Of a stretch of DNA of 34,429 bases, positions 1 through 34,429 are shown piece by piece; position 1 is the stretch's first letter; each line of letters begins with the position of its first letter. Source of the stretch: a virus. Lineage: Duplodnaviria > Heunggongvirae > Uroviricota > Caudoviricetes. Under the pieces are notes generated by a model, which was not told the origin of the DNA, did not search any database, and saw only the letters and a program-made list of their open reading frames with translations. Location of the stretch: IMG/VR virus record IMGVR_UViG_2693429554_000013. One strand, written 5' to 3'. A program made the translations under genes and the position numbers.

Positions 1-1002
1 TTACCCTCTATTGTCAAAAGGGTTCAATTCAACAGCAGCCTCTAAATGACCTGGAGCAAAATGCGCATAACGCATAGTCATTTTTATATCGCTATGCCCC
101 AGTATTTTTTGCAACACAAGAATATTTCCGCCCCGCATCATAAAATGACTGGCAAACGTGTGACGTAGCACATGAGTTAATTGCCCATCAGGAAGCTCGA
201 TCTTCGCTCTCTTAATTGCAGCGTCAAAAGCCTCATAACATGGTGAAAATAGCGCTCCTCGTTTTTTGGGAAGCATAGCCTGCAATTGAGGTGAAATCGG
301 TACAGTGCGGTTCTTCTTTCCTTTAGTTTTAACAAATGTGATTCGACCGGGCAGTACTTGAGATTGCTTTAATCCTTCTGCTTCACTCCACCGAGCACCA
401 GTCGCAAGCCCAATACGGACAACAACCCCCAAATCTTTATTCCGTGACTCATCACACGCAATCAGAAGGCGTTCAATCTCATCTACATACAGAAACGCCA
501 GTTCCTTTTCTTCCTCACGAAACTTGCGAATACCAGTCAGGGGGTTTTCACCAGACCACTCCCCAAGGCGCTTCAGTTCGGCAAAAACAGCATGTAGATA
601 TGACTGCTCGCGATTAACGGTTGCTTCACTAAGTTTTTTCTTCCCCTTGGGATTCCATTCTCCTGATAGCCTTCTTTCCCGATAAGTGGCAAACATATTT
701 TTGTCAAACTGAGAAGCAAATGGATCTCCCAGCCTGGAACAAATCGCCTCAAGTTTGACTTTGCGCTCTGCACCAGAGGACAAGGTTTTACCGTACATCT
801 CAAACCAACGAGCAATCAACTCAGAAAGACGAGGACCAGAACCATCTTGAAACTCGTCTCCAACTCTACTATTCATTAAACGGCGCTCATAAGAGAGCGC
901 CTCACTTTTTGTCGCAAACTGTTTACGAATGCGTTTTCCCGATGCCCCGTAGGGATAACATTCGCAAAGCCATTTACCTGATGGAATCTTACGAACCGAC
1001 AT
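1..1002 (-). CDS. int: Phage tyrosine integrase / site-specific recombinase
   Basis: 333 aa; C-terminal catalytic-like region ...HVLRHTFASHFMMRGGNILVLQKILGHSDIKMTMRYAH (R, H-x-x-R and terminal Y motifs typical of tyrosine recombinases); ATG at 1002, stop at 1-3. Confidence 0.9.
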   Translation of the reverse strand: MSVRKIPSGKWLCECYPYGASGKRIRKQFATKSEALSYERRLMNSRVGDEFQDGSGPRLSELIARWFEMYGKTLSSGAERKVKLEAICSRLGDPFASQFDKNMFATYRERRLSGEWNPKGKKKLSEATVNREQSYLHAVFAELKRLGEWSGENPLTGIRKFREEEKELAFLYVDEIERLLIACDESRNKDLGVVVRIGLATGARWSEAEGLKQSQVLPGRITFVKTKGKKNRTVPISPQLQAMLPKKRGALFSPCYEAFDAAIKRAKIELPDGQLTHVLRHTFASHFMMRGGNILVLQKILGHSDIKMTMRYAHFAPGHLEAAVELNPFDNRG

Positions 1003-1007
1003 TTTAG

Positions 1008-1355
1008 TTACTTATCACACAAATCAAATGCAGCCTTAGTGACATCCCCCAGGCTCTTTTTTAACCCTGGGGCGGCATCATTATCTAGCCAAAATGGATT
1101 ATTGTTATCTAACGGTAACGCACCAAATGTTTTACCTTTTATTCGAGCCAAACCTGTAAGTGCATATAACTTATTATCGTCAAAATTCATCACATAAGGA
1201 TTACCATCAAGACACTGTAATTGAACCTCATCAGTATTAAATGGCCATACCCCATTGAAACTCTCACATTCAATAGTTTTAAAAGGCATTGCGACGGCGG
1301 AAAAAGAAAACATAGATAAAAAAGTAACTAATAGTTGAACCTTTTTTACTTTCAT
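1008..1355 (-). CDS. Small secreted/periplasmic protein of unknown function (probable moron)
   Basis: 115 aa; N-terminal signal-peptide-like segment MKVKKVQLLVTFLSMFSFSAVA; several Cys in mature part; AT-rich by eye. Confidence 0.6.
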   Translation of the reverse strand: MKVKKVQLLVTFLSMFSFSAVAMPFKTIECESFNGVWPFNTDEVQLQCLDGNPYVMNFDDNKLYALTGLARIKGKTFGALPLDNNNPFWLDNDAAPGLKKSLGDVTKAAFDLCDK

Positions 1356-1384
1356 ATCATTACCTCAATTTAGCTCAAGTAAGA

Positions 1385-2035
1385 TTACAAATTAAAAAAC
1401 GCCCTAGAAATGACACCGCCTACCAAAACCCCTACGCAGATAAAGAATATTATTTCTTTTGGATAAAGCCGGATTAATTCTGAAGCACGAAGTCGGACTT
1501 CTGGTAAGGTCGAACTCTCTGTGTGGCTTGATGCCGATTGTTGCTCTAACCACGACAATGCAGACTGTAACTGAGAACGAGTAAGATCGTTTAAACGTCC
1601 TGTACCGAAATTGATATGGCAATACCGCAGAAGTTTTTGTCGAAGTCCACAGTCTTCACTGTTACGTAGTAATAAACTTACAAGAGCCTTACAGGCATCA
1701 TGATCTTTACATCGCTCAAGCATTGCATGCAGAAAACTCTCCGCTGTTTTATATTGATTTACTGTCATATCATCAATACCAGCTACACCAATCTCCGCAT
1801 GTACTTTTTGCCAAATAATAAACGCTTCAGTAGTGCTAGCTTCTGCAATAGCAGCAACCAAGCTATTTAGCTCCTTACGCTGAGCCTTAAGCAAAGGGCG
1901 ATCGTCATCATCATTATTCGAAGGGATTGCGATATTGACGGTATGAGAACCATCATATCGCTCTATCTGAATATTCTTTTCGTGAAAATCACGCCCAGCA
2001 ACGCGATTGTTTGAACCGTTTGAGTTGACGGCCAT
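1385..2035 (-). CDS. Tail-anchored membrane protein, unknown function, co-oriented with repressor
   Basis: 216 aa; single C-terminal hydrophobic helix IIFFICVGVLVGGVISRAFF; N-terminus NSNGSNNRVAGRDFHEKN resembles the repressor C-terminus; starts 15 bp after the repressor stop. Confidence 0.65.
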   Translation of the reverse strand: MAVNSNGSNNRVAGRDFHEKNIQIERYDGSHTVNIAIPSNNDDDDRPLLKAQRKELNSLVAAIAEASTTEAFIIWQKVHAEIGVAGIDDMTVNQYKTAESFLHAMLERCKDHDACKALVSLLLRNSEDCGLRQKLLRYCHINFGTGRLNDLTRSQLQSALSWLEQQSASSHTESSTLPEVRLRASELIRLYPKEIIFFICVGVLVGGVISRAFFNL

Positions 2036-2050
2036 GTCACCTCCCTACTA

Positions 2051-2455
2051 TCACCTACCCTTAGTTTCGTTATAGTCACGACCAGCGATACGGTTATTAC
2101 CACCAGAAATATTTAACTCACGTCCTGATGGCTGAGTTTCCTTTTCACTGATCGCACCTTTTAAAGCCCCAATCACCGCGTTTTTCACATCTAACGAAGC
2201 TGCTCGAAAGCGAGTAATCAACTCCTGCTCATCATCGTTATAAGTTTCAGGTGAGTGAATTCCCAACACAACATACTGAACATCAAGGCCAAAACGAGAC
2301 AGCGCTGCCAAATACGCAGCATCAGGAAAGCTATCTCCTTTCTCATATCTAAGCTGAGTTAGCTTTTTGACTCCACCAATGTCGCTCATGGCAACTTGAC
2401 TAAGTCCCAATCTTTCCCTTTCCTCACGCAACCGCTGACCAATATCATTTTTCAT
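2051..2455 (-). CDS. XRE-family HTH transcriptional regulator, probable prophage immunity repressor
   Basis: 134 aa; N-terminal HTH IGQRLREERERLGLSQVAMSDIGGVKKLTQLRYEKG; divergent from early operon, next to int as in P2/186. Confidence 0.75.
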   Translation of the reverse strand: MKNDIGQRLREERERLGLSQVAMSDIGGVKKLTQLRYEKGDSFPDAAYLAALSRFGLDVQYVVLGIHSPETYNDDEQELITRFRAASLDVKNAVIGALKGAISEKETQPSGRELNISGGNNRIAGRDYNETKGR

Positions 2456-2470
2456 ACAAAAACCTTGACA

Positions 2471-2488
2471 GGTATCTTTTTTGATACC
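2471..2488. promoter_or_regulatory. Perfect palindrome GGTATC-N6-GATACC directly after a TTGACA hexamer (2465-2470); candidate operator of the immunity switch
   Basis: Read in the 75-bp divergent intergenic region between the repressor (start 2455) and the first early gene (start 2531). Confidence 0.4.
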
Positions 2489-2530
2489 AAAATGATTTCA
2501 CGAGCTATTAGATGATCACAATATACCACT

Positions 2531-2737
2531 ATGAAACAAGTTCTTCACGATACCAGATCACGCATTCCGCGTAACACCGCCACAGGTCCAAGACTGGCAC
2601 TTCGGCTGTCCCTCGAGGAGCGAGCCGTCATTGATGAAATGGCAGCTAAAGAACAACGCTCATCCTCTAACATGGCGCGCATGATCTTCCTTCGCGGCCT
2701 AGAGCTAACCCAGAAAGAACAAAACAAATCTTCCTGA
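2531..2737 (+). CDS. Small ribbon-helix-helix-like DNA-binding protein; putative Cox/Cro-like early regulator
   Basis: 68 aa; LALRLSLEERAVIDEMAAKEQRSSSNMARMIFLRGLE fits a strand-helix-helix pattern; first gene of the divergent early operon; no clear SD. Confidence 0.55.
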   Translation: MKQVLHDTRSRIPRNTATGPRLALRLSLEERAVIDEMAAKEQRSSSNMARMIFLRGLELTQKEQNKSS

Positions 2738-2753
2738 TCAGGAGGCTAGTGGG

Positions 2754-2957
2754 ATGTCAGGTATAACCATCAATATCAATGTGAATGCCCCCTATGTATC
2801 CCTGCAGAAATATGCAGAGATAACAGGTATCCCTCTTAATACGTGCAAAAAGATGTTGGCTGACGGTCGAATTATTATCCGCCCCAAACGCGCCAAAATG
2901 GAAAAGCCTGAAGTAAACCTTGTGGCGATGTTAAAAGACGCTTTGGCTAACAGCTAA
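2754..2957 (+). CDS. Small HTH DNA-binding protein (excisionase/regulator-like)
   Basis: 67 aa; HTH-like YVSLQKYAEITGIPLNTCKKMLADGRI; AGGAGG-like RBS upstream. Confidence 0.6.
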   Translation: MSGITININVNAPYVSLQKYAEITGIPLNTCKKMLADGRIIIRPKRAKMEKPEVNLVAMLKDALANS

Positions 2958-2978
2958 AACAATGAACAGAGCACCATC

Positions 2979-3329
2979 ATGAAAAAAAACGCTAATAATC
3001 CATACTCCAAATTTCGTAATGGCGTAGAACGCCATGCTAACCGTTTCGCTACCAGCGCATCACGTAGCAGCTCTCGCTACAGCCTGAGCGAAACACACGC
3101 AACGCCGGATGGCTACCCAGTAAAACAAATCGGCGAGCATACCTGGCTGATTGAGAAAGCTGGAATCGTGATCCACAAATGCCCACGCAATCCGTTTACC
3201 GGAAACCGCATTTTTGCACTGAGCAGCGGCGACAATCAGTTCGGGCAGGATTTCACATTATACGAAGCACTTCGCACGGTTGATCGTCTGCTTCGCGGGC
3301 AAAGTTTTATTAAACAGGCTGATTTATAA
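2979..3329 (+). CDS. Hypothetical early protein
   Basis: 116 aa ORF in the early operon; no recognisable motif. Confidence 0.5.
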   Translation: MKKNANNPYSKFRNGVERHANRFATSASRSSSRYSLSETHATPDGYPVKQIGEHTWLIEKAGIVIHKCPRNPFTGNRIFALSSGDNQFGQDFTLYEALRTVDRLLRGQSFIKQADL

Positions 3330-3339
3330 CAGGTGTTTT

Positions 3340-3627
3340 ATGACCAAAGACCATGCACAAGGTGTATTTATCCGTTTTATTGATTTTCGCGGTGAACTGT
3401 TATTACGTGCATCCGCTATTGACGGAGTGACTCCGGCGGGTAAAAACGGAGCCGACGAAGCCACTTACGTTTATCTGAACGGCACGCGACTGCTTGTGGA
3501 ACTTCCGTACCAGACCGTACGAGAAATCATTAGCGAAGCTGAAAAGGCACACCAGGTTAATGGCGATGAACCCTATATCGAAATTATTTGTATGGATTCA
3601 GAAGCTGAAATACAGAAAGCAGATTAA
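3340..3627 (+). CDS. Hypothetical early protein
   Basis: ORF track begins at 3280 overlapping the previous gene; ATG at 3340 chosen as more plausible start. Confidence 0.45.
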   Translation: MTKDHAQGVFIRFIDFRGELLLRASAIDGVTPAGKNGADEATYVYLNGTRLLVELPYQTVREIISEAEKAHQVNGDEPYIEIICMDSEAEIQKAD

Positions 3628-9279: not shown

Positions 9280-10239
9280 ATGAAAATTTGTATCGACGAC
9301 GGCTCCACCAACATCAAGCTGGCATGGACTGAGAATGGCGAACGCCGCAACGCCATCAGCCCGAACAGCTTCAAGTCGGAATGGTCTGCGCCGTTCGGTG
9401 GCATGCAGCCCGCGAACTACATGCTTGATGGCGTGCGCTATGGTTTTGATCCGGTCAGCGATCGCTTTGTCCAGACGACCGACACGCAATACCAGTACAG
9501 CGATGTGAATGTCATTGCCATTCATCACGCGCTGGTCAAATCAGGCATCACACCACAGGAAGTGGATGTGGTTGTCACCCTGCCACTGAGCGAGTATTTC
9601 GATACAAACGCACAGCCGGACATGGCCAACATCAACCGCAAAAAAGCGAACGTCATGCGCCCGGTGGAGTACCAGAACGGCGAAGCATTCACTATCCGTA
9701 ACGTACGGGTTATGCCTGAATCCATTCCGGCTGGCTTTAAGGCACTGGCTGACATGAGTCCGTTTGAATCCCTGCTGATTGTGGATTTGGGCGGAACCAC
9801 GCTGGATGTGGCAAAGGTTCAGGGGCAACTGGCAGGTATCAGCCAGGTGTTTTGCGATCCACACGTAGGCGTTTCTCTGATGGCCGATGCCGTGCTGTCG
9901 GTGATGGCCACCAACGGTATGCGCACCAGTCACCACATCGCCAATACCATTATCGAACATCGCCACGATGAAGCCTGGCTGCGCCAGCACATCCACAATG
10001 ACGCGCATTACGCCAGCCTGATGGCAGTTATTCGTGAAAAGGAGGAAACACTGAAACAACGCGTGATCCGCGCGCTGGCGGGTTTTTCGGGTTACGGGCG
10101 GGTGATGGTTGTAGGTGGAGGAGCGGAGATTGTGGCACCCGCTATCCGCGAAGCCTGCGGAGTTAATGCGACTTTCATCGCGGACGGGGTGCCACAGTTT
10201 GCTCTGGTTAATGGGCTGTACGCAATGGACAAGGAGTAA
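9280..10239 (+). CDS. parM: ParM/StbA-family actin-like segregation ATPase
   Basis: 319 aa; N-terminus MKICIDDGSTNIKLAW and motifs ISPNSFK, YQYSDVNV, LIVDLGGTTLDV match my recollection of plasmid R1 ParM. Confidence 0.85.
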   Translation: MKICIDDGSTNIKLAWTENGERRNAISPNSFKSEWSAPFGGMQPANYMLDGVRYGFDPVSDRFVQTTDTQYQYSDVNVIAIHHALVKSGITPQEVDVVVTLPLSEYFDTNAQPDMANINRKKANVMRPVEYQNGEAFTIRNVRVMPESIPAGFKALADMSPFESLLIVDLGGTTLDVAKVQGQLAGISQVFCDPHVGVSLMADAVLSVMATNGMRTSHHIANTIIEHRHDEAWLRQHIHNDAHYASLMAVIREKEETLKQRVIRALAGFSGYGRVMVVGGGAEIVAPAIREACGVNATFIADGVPQFALVNGLYAMDKE

Positions 10240-10243
10240 ATCA

Positions 10244-10558
10244 ATGACGACACCAACCAGACGGATAAGTTTCTATCTGAAGCCCGCCGTCGTCAAGAGC
10301 GAACGGGAGGCGTGTAATTACCTCGACAGCCTGCCAGCCTCCGAACGCAGCCGCGCACAACGCGCGGCTTTTCTGGCTGGACTGGCTCTTATAAAACGCA
10401 CCCCCGCGTTGGCGTATTCGCTGGCAGAATGGTCAGAAGACGAAATACGGATGCCACCGCTACCAGTACAGCCTGAAAAACCGGCGCAACCAGCAGCAGA
10501 CAGCGCCCCCCATATGCAGCAGGTGAAAAAGAATATTCAGGCGTTTTTCCCGAAGTGA
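10244..10558 (+). CDS. parR: ParR/StbB-like centromere-binding adaptor
   Basis: 104 aa; RRISFYLKPAVVKSEREACNYLDSLPASERSRAQRAAFLAGLALIKR aligns with my recollection of R1 ParR; AGGAG RBS; ORF-track start 10115 is in frame but overlaps parM. Confidence 0.7.
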   Translation: MTTPTRRISFYLKPAVVKSEREACNYLDSLPASERSRAQRAAFLAGLALIKRTPALAYSLAEWSEDEIRMPPLPVQPEKPAQPAADSAPHMQQVKKNIQAFFPK

Positions 10559-12657: not shown

Positions 12658-14437
12658 CTGACAGGATCCATGTTGATTTGCGCTTGTGCTTATAGTTCAG
12701 GGGTTCATTACTTGCGGCATGAGCTATGGCAAAGAAGATGTCTGCGTGCCCGGTTTCTTCGCTACGTTCGGCGGTGAAAGTGACTTTATTGCCACTGTTA
12801 GTGGACTCCTGACGAATGGCCAGGAACGATGCCGGAATATCTGTGGCTTCTTCATCCCACTCAATACGGTTGGCGTAAATCAGATCCAGCATCTTCATCA
12901 CCAGGCGGTTTTTGGATTCAACGCTGTAATGAATGGCCACTGTTTCACGGCGGGCAAATCCCTGAACCAGCTCAAAGACACCGTAGCCAAGACCGGTGAC
13001 GTCAATGCCGATAAATGTCATGTTATAGCGCGCCTTAATGCTGCGGATACGCTCTGCCATAAACTGGAATGACATACTGCGCCAGTGGTGTTTTTCCAGC
13101 ACGCGGAATCGTTCTGCCGAAACCAGCGGCGGTGCCAGCACCACAAACGTGGCGTTATCGCCGGAGCGCGCAGGATCAAAGCCACCCCACACCTCACGGT
13201 TACCAAATGGCATGGGTTCTTCCGGGTGAAAATCCTCCCACGTACTGACATCAACGCCACAGCGCACGAGGTCATCGAATTTAAAGACGCTCTCTTTGTC
13301 ATCCACAAACACACACATAAACAGCATATTGAACGCTGTTTCGTTGTATCGCTCGCGCAGCTCGTTGATGTCAGCAAGGTTAAAGCCGCCGGCAATGGCA
13401 TCTTCCAGCGTAACCACATAGCGCCACTGACCGTCCGGGCATTCGCGCCCGCCATCACGCAGTTCATCAAAGGACGGAAACTCAACCCCTTTTCGTTTCG
13501 GATCACCTTTGCGCCATTCATCGCCAGACCAGAACGGATAACCCTGGTGTGTTTTGGATGACGGCGTGGAGAAATAGGTAATGCGCCAGTGTTTATGGGT
13601 GGCCATCCCTGACGCCACTTCATTGAGACGGCGAAAACCGGGGATCCACAGGTATTCGTCAATGTACAGGTGGCCGCTGTTTGACTGTGCCGTGTTGCTG
13701 TTGGTCGCCAGAAAATACAGTTCAGCCAGATTACTTAACTTAACCGGATTGCCTTTAATGGGAATGCCAAACTCTGTTTGTGCAATTTTTACAATATAAG
13801 TACGGAACACTTCGGCCTGACGTTTTGATGCCGATAAAAATATCTGTGTGTCGCCGGTTAATACCGCATCTTCAAACGCCTCAAACGCGAAGTAATACGT
13901 CGCCCCAATCTGACGGGATTTAAGCAGGTTGCGTACACGGCGGAATTTGTTTTCACGCAGGCGCAACTGATAAGCAAACAGTTTCTTCGTAAACGGCTCA
14001 AAACTTTCAGCAGTCAGTCCGGAAACGTCATTAGCTTTGCGGGGGCGCTCTTTCTTACCTGCACCTTTTTCTCCGCGTTCTTCTTTTCCATAACGACCAG
14101 ACTGGGGAATATCCGCTCCCATTCGTTCAATCTCGGCCATTCGTTCCGTGTGCTTGTTCCTGACCGACATCAGTTTGACATGATGACCAATCAGGCGATC
14201 GAGTTCATCGTGCTCTTCCGGCGTTTTATGATCACGCTCCGCCAGTACAGCGAGACGACGGGCGATAACATCTTCCACACCTTCAGTATTAAGCTGTGTG
14301 TACCACTCAAACTTTGTCGCCCAGTAATAAACAATTCGCGGGCTGTTCAGTCCGAGTTTCTTTTGTATTTCTTTTGGTGTGTGCCTTTTCAGATAGAGCG
14401 ATTTTGCAGCAGCAATCACCTCATCAGAATATGCCAT
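12650..14437 (-). CDS. Terminase large subunit, P2 gpP family
   Basis: 595 aa; position and size; overlaps portal start by 8 nt. Confidence 0.85.
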   Translation of the reverse strand: MAYSDEVIAAAKSLYLKRHTPKEIQKKLGLNSPRIVYYWATKFEWYTQLNTEGVEDVIARRLAVLAERDHKTPEEHDELDRLIGHHVKLMSVRNKHTERMAEIERMGADIPQSGRYGKEERGEKGAGKKERPRKANDVSGLTAESFEPFTKKLFAYQLRLRENKFRRVRNLLKSRQIGATYYFAFEAFEDAVLTGDTQIFLSASKRQAEVFRTYIVKIAQTEFGIPIKGNPVKLSNLAELYFLATNSNTAQSNSGHLYIDEYLWIPGFRRLNEVASGMATHKHWRITYFSTPSSKTHQGYPFWSGDEWRKGDPKRKGVEFPSFDELRDGGRECPDGQWRYVVTLEDAIAGGFNLADINELRERYNETAFNMLFMCVFVDDKESVFKFDDLVRCGVDVSTWEDFHPEEPMPFGNREVWGGFDPARSGDNATFVVLAPPLVSAERFRVLEKHHWRSMSFQFMAERIRSIKARYNMTFIGIDVTGLGYGVFELVQGFARRETVAIHYSVESKNRLVMKMLDLIYANRIEWDEEATDIPASFLAIRQESTNSGNKVTFTAERSEETGHADIFFAIAHAASNEPLNYKHKRKSTWILSDE

Positions 14438-14511
14438 AAATAAACCTCACCTGCTGATGCAGTTTTAATTTATGCATTTTCAGCAAAGGTTTTTTTTAAA
14501 ACGAATATCAC

Positions 14512-14558
14512 TTTTCGGTATTTTTCGGATATATGCGCATATCCGAAAGTACCGGAAA
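14512..14558. promoter_or_regulatory. Four TTTCGG(A)TAT-like half-sites (two direct, two inverted) in the divergent late-promoter region
   Basis: TTTTCGGTA, TTTCGGATAT, ATATCCGAAA, GTACCGGAAA within the 194-bp region between large terminase and scaffold starts. Confidence 0.35.
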
Positions 14559-14631
14559 TTAATCAGATGACGACGTTTTTATTTCTCCTTTAAATAACGC
14601 CCAGTTAATTTTTATCAGCGGGTTAATTCAG

Positions 14632-15528
14632 ATGACGAAGCAGAAAACAGACTGGGTTGTGGTTGCCACATCAGGCCCCACCATCGACGGTCGGGAAATT
14701 GATCCGAAGTGGCTGACAGATGCCGCCGAGGTTTATAACCCGGACGAGCGAGCCGCCATGCTCTGGCCATATCACGCTGATTCCGGATGGCGTGCCTTCA
14801 CCAATAACTACGGCCTTGTTGATGCCCTGAAAGTCGAAAAATTTGGTGACAAGGTGCAGCTAAAAGCACGCCTGATCCCAAATCGCTTCCTGATTGAAGC
14901 CAATAAGGCCGGGCAGAAACTTTTTACCTCCATTGAGGTGCGGGAAAACTATCTGGGCACGGGCAAATTCTTTGTGTCCGGTGTCGCCGTGACGGATACC
15001 CCGGCCAGCGTTAACACCACACGTCTGCAGTTTTCCATGAGGGAAACCATCCATATGGGCAACGCAGAGGCGCTGAATTTTACGCTGCAGTCTGATGATG
15101 AGCAGGCAAAGCGCAACTTCTTCTCCCGCTTCTTCTCATCTGACAACCACCAACAGGGAATCTACCAAGCCATGAACGAAGAACAGTTCAGCCAGTTAAT
15201 GGGCGCTATTAATAAAACCAGCGAACGCCTGGACAAGCTGGAAGAAAACGTCGCGCAGTTCAGCGCGAAGGATGCCCCGAAAGATACCTGTGATAACAAG
15301 CCGGAAGGCAGCACCGGCGATCAGGGGCAGGACAACGCAGAACAGAACAACAAGGACGACAAAACCTTCACGCTGACCACCGAGCAGGGCGAAAAGCTGT
15401 TCTCCACAGTGAACGCCATCGCGGAGAAGGTTACCAGTATGGAAACCGCATTTGCTGAACTCAGCAAGGACGCCACGAAGCTGCCGGGCAACAATCCGGC
15501 CGGTGGCGAAACTTTTAACCTGGTGTAA
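14632..15528 (+). CDS. Capsid scaffolding protein, P2 gpO family
   Basis: 298 aa; LFTSIEVRENYLGTGKFFVSGVAVTDTPAS matches my recollection of the P2 gpO conserved region. Confidence 0.8.
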   Translation: MTKQKTDWVVVATSGPTIDGREIDPKWLTDAAEVYNPDERAAMLWPYHADSGWRAFTNNYGLVDALKVEKFGDKVQLKARLIPNRFLIEANKAGQKLFTSIEVRENYLGTGKFFVSGVAVTDTPASVNTTRLQFSMRETIHMGNAEALNFTLQSDDEQAKRNFFSRFFSSDNHQQGIYQAMNEEQFSQLMGAINKTSERLDKLEENVAQFSAKDAPKDTCDNKPEGSTGDQGQDNAEQNNKDDKTFTLTTEQGEKLFSTVNAIAEKVTSMETAFAELSKDATKLPGNNPAGGETFNLV

Positions 15529-34030: not shown

Positions 34031-34288
34031 AGCATGTATCAAATGCGTGACTGAATAATGTCTGCGGTCGGGAATTTTATATCAGAAGGCTGAGAGGCCT
34101 CAACGGATTGAAACAAGGGAAAAAACCAGGCTAGAATTCGCGCGGGTGCCTTTCGGCTGATGGTCGGAGGGAACACCCGAAGGCCGGATGTGGAAAGGCC
34201 CCGGAAAACATTTCTGTTTAACCGAGGCCCTAACCCGTCAACCTAGCAAGTGATAGGTTAGCGCCTCTCCAACAAAGGAGCAAGCGCT

Positions 34289-34429
34289 ATGTCGCAAAAA
34301 TCGCTTACGGCCATCACGTTCTGCGTGACGGTAATCCTCATCATCTGGATGCTGCACGGTTCGCTGTGTGAAATACGGATGAGCTTCTGGGGAGCGGAGT
34401 TTGCGGCGTTCTTACAGTGTAAGCAGTAA
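34289..34429 (+). CDS. hok: Hok/Gef-family type I toxin peptide (HokA-like)
   Basis: 46 aa MSQKSLTAITFCVTVILIIWMLHGSLCEIRMSFWGAEFAAFLQCKQ; TM helix plus SLCEIR...AAF signature; SD AAAGGAG 7 bp upstream. Confidence 0.75.
   Translation: MSQKSLTAITFCVTVILIIWMLHGSLCEIRMSFWGAEFAAFLQCKQ

Follow-up and report, generated by a model that had tools for sequence, protein, structure and literature searches.

The only characterized Gram-negative relative of the protein considered here is YebY of Escherichia coli (PF10709; PDB 7N0J), the product of the third gene of the yobA-yebZ-yebY copper-uptake operon. YebY was found to be monomeric and periplasmic and to bind copper weakly, and only if reduced (PMC8689200). 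In the periplasm, its two strictly conserved cysteines (Cys48 and the C-terminal Cys113) form a stabilizing disulfide, and Trp37 is its first structurally conserved residue (Hadley et al., PMC8689200). More recently, YebY has been connected with copper uptake and with multidrug resistance that depends on copper, and its co-expression with YebZ resulted in less YebZ-dependent copper accumulation (PMC11923076). Some settings of the DUF2511 family have no relation to copper, and it has already been remarked that, in Enterobacteriaceae, yebY homologues occur with a XerD-type recombinase on one side and a phage CI-type repressor on the other (PMC8689200). A second relative, the lipoprotein MlbQ of Microbispora (PDB 2MVO/6QFP), has a long linker without structure; its gene belongs to a Gram-positive lantibiotic cluster, where it neighbors the ABC-transporter immunity genes. 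It is the proposed self-resistance protein for the lantibiotic NAI-107 and was proposed to bind the lantibiotic (PMC8689200).

The DNA analyzed in this study (the window, the whole stretch of 34,429 nt) encodes an uncharacterized subfamily member of this known YebY/DUF2511 family within a P2-like prophage. Two things were already known about it: the name given by PGAP to the protein of the 100% identical RefSeq locus (WP_032300840.1, "DUF2511 domain-containing protein") and the one-sentence mention of the genomic context cited above (PMC8689200). Its present standing is that of an ordinary, already catalogued accessory gene. An earlier note, made from the letters of the window, had described a secreted, Cys-containing small protein, maybe a lysozyme inhibitor; the present analysis replaces that description with a precise family assignment and a genomic logic.

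Position and composition of the gene in the lysogeny string

The window showed 100% identity to a prophage in E. coli strain 48956, which has a complete P2-type gene set and lies between yecA and the leuZ-cysT-glyW tRNA genes. The nearest named phages were P88-like members of Xuanwuvirus (Peduoviridae). At one end of the window, four genes on the minus strand formed a single string in the order HTH repressor, Flk_N-like protein, DUF2511 protein, and integrase, with gaps of 15, 29, and 5 nt. The first gene (2051 to 2455) encodes a 134-aa XRE-type HTH immunity repressor, with matches to Pfam HTH_31/HTH_3 and to PHROG repressor families. It is followed by the gene for a 216-aa Flk_N-like protein with a C-terminal membrane anchor (1385 to 2035; NCBIfam Flk, E = 6e-16; phrog_5825; PF27202 on homologues), the DUF2511 gene (1008 to 1355), and finally the gene for the tyrosine integrase (1 to 1002; Pfam Int_N and Phage_integrase), which starts 5 nt past the DUF2511 stop codon. 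The DUF2511 gene thus adjoins the integrase gene as the earlier note had stated, but it was located inside one continuous repressor-to-integrase string rather than between the integrase and a separate repressor operon.

A sigma-70-like promoter (TTGACA-17-CAAAAT) was identified by a consensus scan at 2465 to 2493 on the plus strand, facing the early operon (Arc-like ORF and cox), and it indicates where the switch region lies upstream of the repressor string. The promoter of the repressor was not found by the consensus scan. The consensus-based scan also predicted neither a terminator nor a promoter flanking 1008 to 1384 on the minus strand, and a weak internal -35/-10 match at 1108 to 1080 (minus strand) was the sole promoter-like signal near the DUF2511 gene. 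No flanking repeats marking an insertion or a cassette were found around the gene. In phage P2, C and int are co-transcribed from the repressor promoter, and by analogy the DUF2511 gene would be co-transcribed with the repressor of this prophage. Its position in the lysogeny string therefore suggests that the protein is made by the lysogen together with the repressor and not during virion production. The gene is very probably optional cargo in the lysogeny string of a P88/CP-933T-type P2-like prophage at yecA, and with the same confidence can be placed among the products made with the repressor rather than for virion production.

The proposal that the gene is a moron was supported in part. Under the strict definition of a moron, the deviant base composition and the presence or absence among relatives were both observed, but a flanking promoter and terminator were not predicted by the consensus-based scans. 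Given also the short gaps of 29 and 5 nt to the neighboring genes and the lack of flanking repeats, the DUF2511 gene looks like cargo carried within an operon, not an autonomous moron standing by itself.

The coding sequence (115 aa) runs from an ATG start to a TAA stop codon and was supported by the ORF list, Pfam, PHROG, and the RefSeq annotation of the 100% identical locus. A Shine-Dalgarno sequence, GAGGT, was read directly at 1362 to 1366 (minus strand), 6 nt before the ATG and within the 29-nt gap past the Flk_N-like stop codon. The ORF list contained no competing long ORF over 1008 to 1355, and no Rfam family was found in positions 1 to 3500. The segment had been judged AT rich by eye, and the windowed GC calculation bore this out. 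The GC content was 35.6% in the gene (GC3, 28%), compared with 45% in int, 41.6% in the next gene, and 51.8% in the whole window. A GC content as low as that of the gene was seen in just 0.5% of the 348-nt segments of the 34-kb window, and the minimum for the whole window (33%) was inside the gene. Homologues in other genera were also among the GC-poorest genes of their own modules. The only other patch of ≤37% GC, at 14265 to 14635, lies where the terminase large-subunit gene and the capsid scaffold gene diverge, in an intergenic region, and presumably represents the late promoters.

Among 18 distinct DNA alleles from E. coli, 17 polymorphic codons showed synonymous changes only, and 9 included replacements. 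Apart from those in the signal peptide, the replacements affected only positions 27, 30, 41, 95, and 101, and residues 43 to 94 had none. Between genera, pN was 0.12 to 0.30 and pS was 0.71 to 0.94, with synonymous sites saturated, which points to strong purifying selection on the DUF2511 gene across genera. The phrog_2950 and Pfam matches, the mostly synonymous variation within E. coli, and the excess of pS over pN between genera together indicate that 1008 to 1355 is a real gene and more than a chance ORF.

The predicted periplasmic protein

The N terminus, which had been noted as resembling a signal peptide, contained all of the expected elements: an n-region (MKVKK, +3), a hydrophobic core at residues 7 to 19, and a cleavage site between AVA and MP after residue 22. 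The predicted Sec-type signal peptide, MKVKKVQLLVTFLSMFSFSAVA, corresponds to codons 1 to 22 (1290 to 1355, minus strand), leaving a mature protein of 93 aa (∼10.3 kDa; pI 4.5) encoded, with the stop codon, by 1008 to 1289. Ala22, Pro24, and Phe25 were near-invariant among 16 homologues. No lipobox was found in the protein, and its reading as a lipoprotein was therefore rejected. A predicted signal peptide accords with the family, whose representatives were all extracytoplasmic (65 clusters at 50% identity).

The protein contains three cysteines, at positions 30, 48, and 113. Trp37 (codon 1245 to 1247, minus strand), Cys48 (1212 to 1214), and Cys113 (1017 to 1019) were invariant among the 16 homologues and aligned with the equivalent residues of YebY. 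Cys48 and Cys113 correspond to the disulfide pair of the family and would be expected, from the sequence comparison, to form this bond in the prophage protein as well. Cys30 (1266 to 1268, TGT) is different. It was found on 87 contigs, compared with at least 1,000 for Arg30 (CGT), and was absent from all 41 IMG/VR E. coli copies that were compared. It is a minority allele and should not be read as a family feature; the description "Cys-containing" therefore holds for the conserved pair, and the third cysteine is specific to the allele. With this allele, a periplasmic protein gains a third cysteine that has no partner, and most E. coli alleles encode Arg30.

The assignment to the family was supported by several searches. 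The Pfam profile PF10709 was matched with 27.1 bits (gathering cutoff, 21), with residues 35 to 113 aligned to profile positions 9 to 87 of 87, and phrog_2950 was matched end to end (E = 3.8e-39). Precomputed PF10709 annotations were present on 15 of the 18 homologue clusters. When PDB sequences were searched with phmmer, the only match was E. coli YebY (7N0J), with Trp37, Cys48, and Cys113 at the same residue numbers and an overall identity of 28 to 29%. In the AlphaFold2 model of the protein (pLDDT, 79), the fold was that of 7N0J and 2MVO, a four-stranded antiparallel sheet packed with helices, and the top Foldseek matches were 7N0J (TM score, 0.79) and MlbQ (6QFP). The lysozyme-inhibitor fold that had been offered as an example was not borne out by these homology and structure searches.

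An exhaustive HMMER search showed the family to be small, with 65 clusters at 50% identity. The prophage-type proteins formed two tight clusters, whose nearest outside (nonphage) relatives were 42% identical and were not YebY proper. A 24-residue core, QLQCLDG..YVMNFDDN.LYALTG, was almost invariant from Escherichia to Erwinia, and this block of the phage clade differs from the equivalent stretch of YebY. The prophage gene also differs in context, being located in a lysogeny operon and not beside yobA (CopC) or yebZ (CopD) in any of at least 55 loci. It is therefore considered a paralogue of the chromosomal gene. The resemblance to MlbQ was more distant, with 22 to 23% identity, no lipobox, and no transporter genes in the annotation of the window. 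Overall, the product is almost certainly a Sec-exported ∼10-kDa periplasmic YebY/DUF2511 protein with the fold of that family and the cysteine pair of the family disulfide, and not an orthologue of chromosomal yebY. With the weak copper binding of YebY, the ligand proposed for MlbQ, and the copper-unrelated contexts of the family in mind, the YebY fold is best seen as a small extracytoplasmic binding module.

No family in the PADLOC-DB 2.0 defense models matched the protein at E ≤ 0.1, and assignment to a known defense system was rejected on this basis. No viral structures with the DUF2511 fold were found in BFVD.

Distribution and candidate roles

The DUF2511 gene was found in 507 of 5,426 complete E. 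coli genomes, many of them O157:H7. In the same set, the Flk_N-like gene was found in 525 genomes, and ∼1,470 matched the neighboring early region, which P88-like phages also have (DUF4761 gene; window 3012 to 3400). About 9% of complete E. coli genomes (about 1 in 11), including O157:H7 and other STEC, therefore carry the gene, and in those strains a second DUF2511 protein would be present in the periplasm beside chromosomal YebY.

The same four-gene module, with cox opposite, was identified in Escherichia, Klebsiella, Citrobacter, Serratia, Erwinia, and Rosenbergiella, and all prophage-type DUF2511 loci that were read (at least 55) had integrase, Flk_N-like, and HTH repressor genes as neighbors. 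Identity across genera was 63 to 69% for the DUF2511 protein, 56 to 65% for the Flk_N-like protein, 74 to 78% for the integrase, and 34 to 55% for the repressor. These values indicate that the gene and its neighbors have co-diverged in six or more genera, contrary to the idea of a sporadic, recent acquisition. A scan of species-representative genomes returned one locus only (Rosenbergiella), the back-translated patterns used being narrow.

Comparison with related phages, which had been suggested as a check, showed that the gene is not present in all relatives. In phage P88, the integrase gene lies directly beside the repressor gene, and the DUF2511 gene is missing from sister prophages that have the same integrase and repressor. 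As had been anticipated, the cargo varies at the position between int and the Flk_N-like gene, and sister prophages have unrelated genes in this slot. In E. coli, at the same yecA site, the gene in the slot encoded an acidic 85-aa DUF8087 protein with no signal peptide (locus L003, 3037 to 3294, minus strand). In Klebsiella, it encoded a 288-aa BRCT/WYL-like protein with weak PADLOC matches (PDC-S48 and WYL; L069, 4147 to 5013, plus strand), and in Erwinia, a secreted 198-aa protein of no known family (L013, 6014 to 6610, plus strand). Also in Erwinia, the DUF2511 gene was found on the other side of the Flk_N-like gene, with the order swapped.

The Flk_N-like protein has an Flk_N-type cytoplasmic domain and, across P2-like prophages of many Enterobacterales, constantly accompanies this type of repressor. 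One of its clusters was found on >750 Klebsiella contigs, and no solved structure of the protein was found. A dedicated two-gene module of the DUF2511 and Flk_N-like proteins was considered and rejected, although the genes are adjacent in six genera and remain so even when swapped in Erwinia. The Flk_N-like protein is far more widespread (at least 194 clusters at 90% identity versus 18 DUF2511 clusters) and is paired with unrelated genes in the same slot. Furthermore, it ends a few residues past its anchor, leaving no periplasmic domain to meet the DUF2511 protein.

Among GenBank phages, the DUF2511 gene was found only in Escherichia phage 520873 (NC_049344.1/CP025923.1, 1039 to 3065), where the integrase, DUF2511, and Flk_N-like genes are each split into two or three frames and the last two are unannotated. 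These frame breaks are probably sequencing errors.

Several phage-encoded small proteins act in or at the envelope of the cell in which the phage resides, including Cor, Llp, HK97 gp15, and T4 Spackle, the last being small, exported, and periplasmic. P2-type phages, for their part, have the conversion genes old, tin, and fun. Taken as a whole, the locus is, by a slight preference, best explained as exported YebY-family cargo of the lysogeny string that acts as a periplasmic shield. The exported protein would be nonenzymatic and would shield the lysogen at the envelope by binding a ligand from outside the cell, which could be part of a superinfecting phage or else a peptide or toxin directed at the envelope. 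The shield itself, as exclusion of superinfecting phages or neutralization of an envelope-targeting agent, is proposed tentatively and at less than even probability. It was suggested by the presumed expression with the repressor, by the defense-like alternative in the same slot, and by the habits of P2-type conversion genes, and MlbQ provides a precedent for ligand binding by the same fold. The likeness to Spackle, Cor, Llp, and HK97 gp15 would be one of function only, as no relation in sequence or fold was found in the PDB or BFVD. Against a shield, neither PADLOC nor BFVD offered a model or a viral structure, and the only copy in a GenBank phage is frameshifted and unannotated. In addition, the only characterized Gram-negative homologue, YebY, acts on copper import and not in defense (PMC11923076). 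The near-invariance of the 24-residue core also points to a conserved target, which would somewhat favor a host molecule over a fast-evolving phage target.

The main rival is mimicry of host YebY, in which the prophage copy would act on YobA/YebZ and damp YebZ-mediated copper import, thereby changing the copper load and the copper-dependent activation of mar. The Pfam family, fold, size, signal peptide, Trp37, and Cys48/Cys113 are all common to the prophage protein and E. coli YebY; the lower copper accumulation upon co-expression of YebY with YebZ (PMC11923076) is of the kind that such mimicry would produce, and the host genera seen were all Enterobacterales, in which AZY-type operons are common. 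Mimicry is nevertheless unlikely, given the identity of only 28 to 29% to YebY, the nearest nonphage relatives outside YebY proper, the unlike invariant block of the phage clade, and the absence of yobA, yebZ, or any other copper gene nearby. Moreover, the family is not confined to copper contexts, and the copper binding of YebY is weak and requires reduction (PMC8689200). A broader formulation, that P2-like prophages have recruited the YebY fold for lysogenic conversion, in a function separate from that of YebY, covers both a new periplasmic superinfection-exclusion or toxin-shield protein and a paralogue that, as a decoy, rewires host copper import and mar signaling that depends on copper; it is offered as a possibility, and a rather doubtful one. 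If the protein does touch the copper pathway, or does block phages or envelope toxins, it would represent a simple single-gene conversion factor.

Three further explanations are less likely. In published proteomics of an O157 lysogen that had not been induced, the DUF2511 protein was detected in culture supernatants. On one reading, it would cross the outer membrane of EHEC via the type II secretion system and act outside the bacterium, on host cells or competitors. The link to the T2SS is weak, however: only three peptides were detected, in the supplementary table of the same paper the log2 fold change in the T2SS mutant was -0.5, which was not significant, and the T3SS mutant was marked "Up," and the periplasmic proteins DsbA and Skp were in the same lists, so that leakage or vesicles could explain the detection. 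As the gene is also conserved in Klebsiella, Serratia, Erwinia, and Rosenbergiella prophages without an EHEC setting, a secreted factor is improbable. Still less probable is a part of the phage life cycle (virion, lysis, or integration helper) or a nonfunctional leftover ORF. The 5-nt gap to the integrase gene and the description of CP-933T as cryptic in the literature are compatible with such an origin, but the gene is lacking in P88 and in sister prophages with the same integrase and repressor, export to the periplasm is predicted, selection across genera appears strongly purifying, and the protein has been detected. A periplasmic inhibitor of the type of Ivy or MliC/PliC, which would defend peptidoglycan against lysozymes of the host or of phages, is hardly credible; membership in those families was largely refuted, with neither the CKPHDC loop of Ivy nor the lipoprotein beta-barrel of MliC found.

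A motif pair and other features of the window

The repressor was found to end in ..ISGGNNRIAGRDYNETKGR, and the Flk_N-like protein begins with MAVNSNGSNNRVAGRDFHEKNIQI. The two share a motif, NR[VI]AGRD[YF] or, more generally, [NQ]R[IVL][AS]GRD[FY], encoded on the minus strand at 2072 to 2095 and 1985 to 2008. It lies 5 to 6 residues from the stop codon in the HTH repressor and spans residues 10 to 17 of the Flk_N-like protein, and the general pattern occurred at these two places only in all six frames of the window. The motif was also located at L003, L005, L009, L013, L015, and L069. It was kept in both proteins at loci from other genera, and the DNA copies differed at third codon positions. 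A pattern scan of IMG/VR returned 108 stretches (L073 to L180), in which the motif was placed at the protein N terminus 93 times, in the C-terminal tail 82 times, and internally 9 times. Same-strand pairs, with a tail copy followed by an N-terminal copy, numbered 72 and were mostly 15 or 22 nt apart. In these pairs, the first gene always belonged to the same HTH family, and the second belonged to at least four unrelated membrane-protein families.

Amyloid-signaling motif pairs have recently been demonstrated for the Bab/Agp abortive-infection system of E. coli prophages, and the geometry of the present pair appears similar to that of pairs such as Bab/Agp BASS11 (bioRxiv 10.1101/2024.11.07.622273). 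A shared degron or decoy would be an alternative to amyloid-type signaling. The motif pair has no bearing on the DUF2511 gene.

Beyond the repressor, annotations conflicted. A 68-aa ORF on the plus strand (2531 to 2737) matched a PHROG "Arc-like repressor" family (E = 1e-28) and is annotated in phage 520873, whereas RefSeq calls a 45-aa hypothetical protein on the minus strand (2545 to 2682) in strain 48956 instead. Plasmid-type maintenance genes, encoding ParM and a partition/stability protein, were present in this P2-like prophage past the replication gene (∼9280 to 10558), and a Hok/Gef toxin gene was located at the far end of the window (34282 to 34422), both according to the RefSeq annotation of the identical locus.
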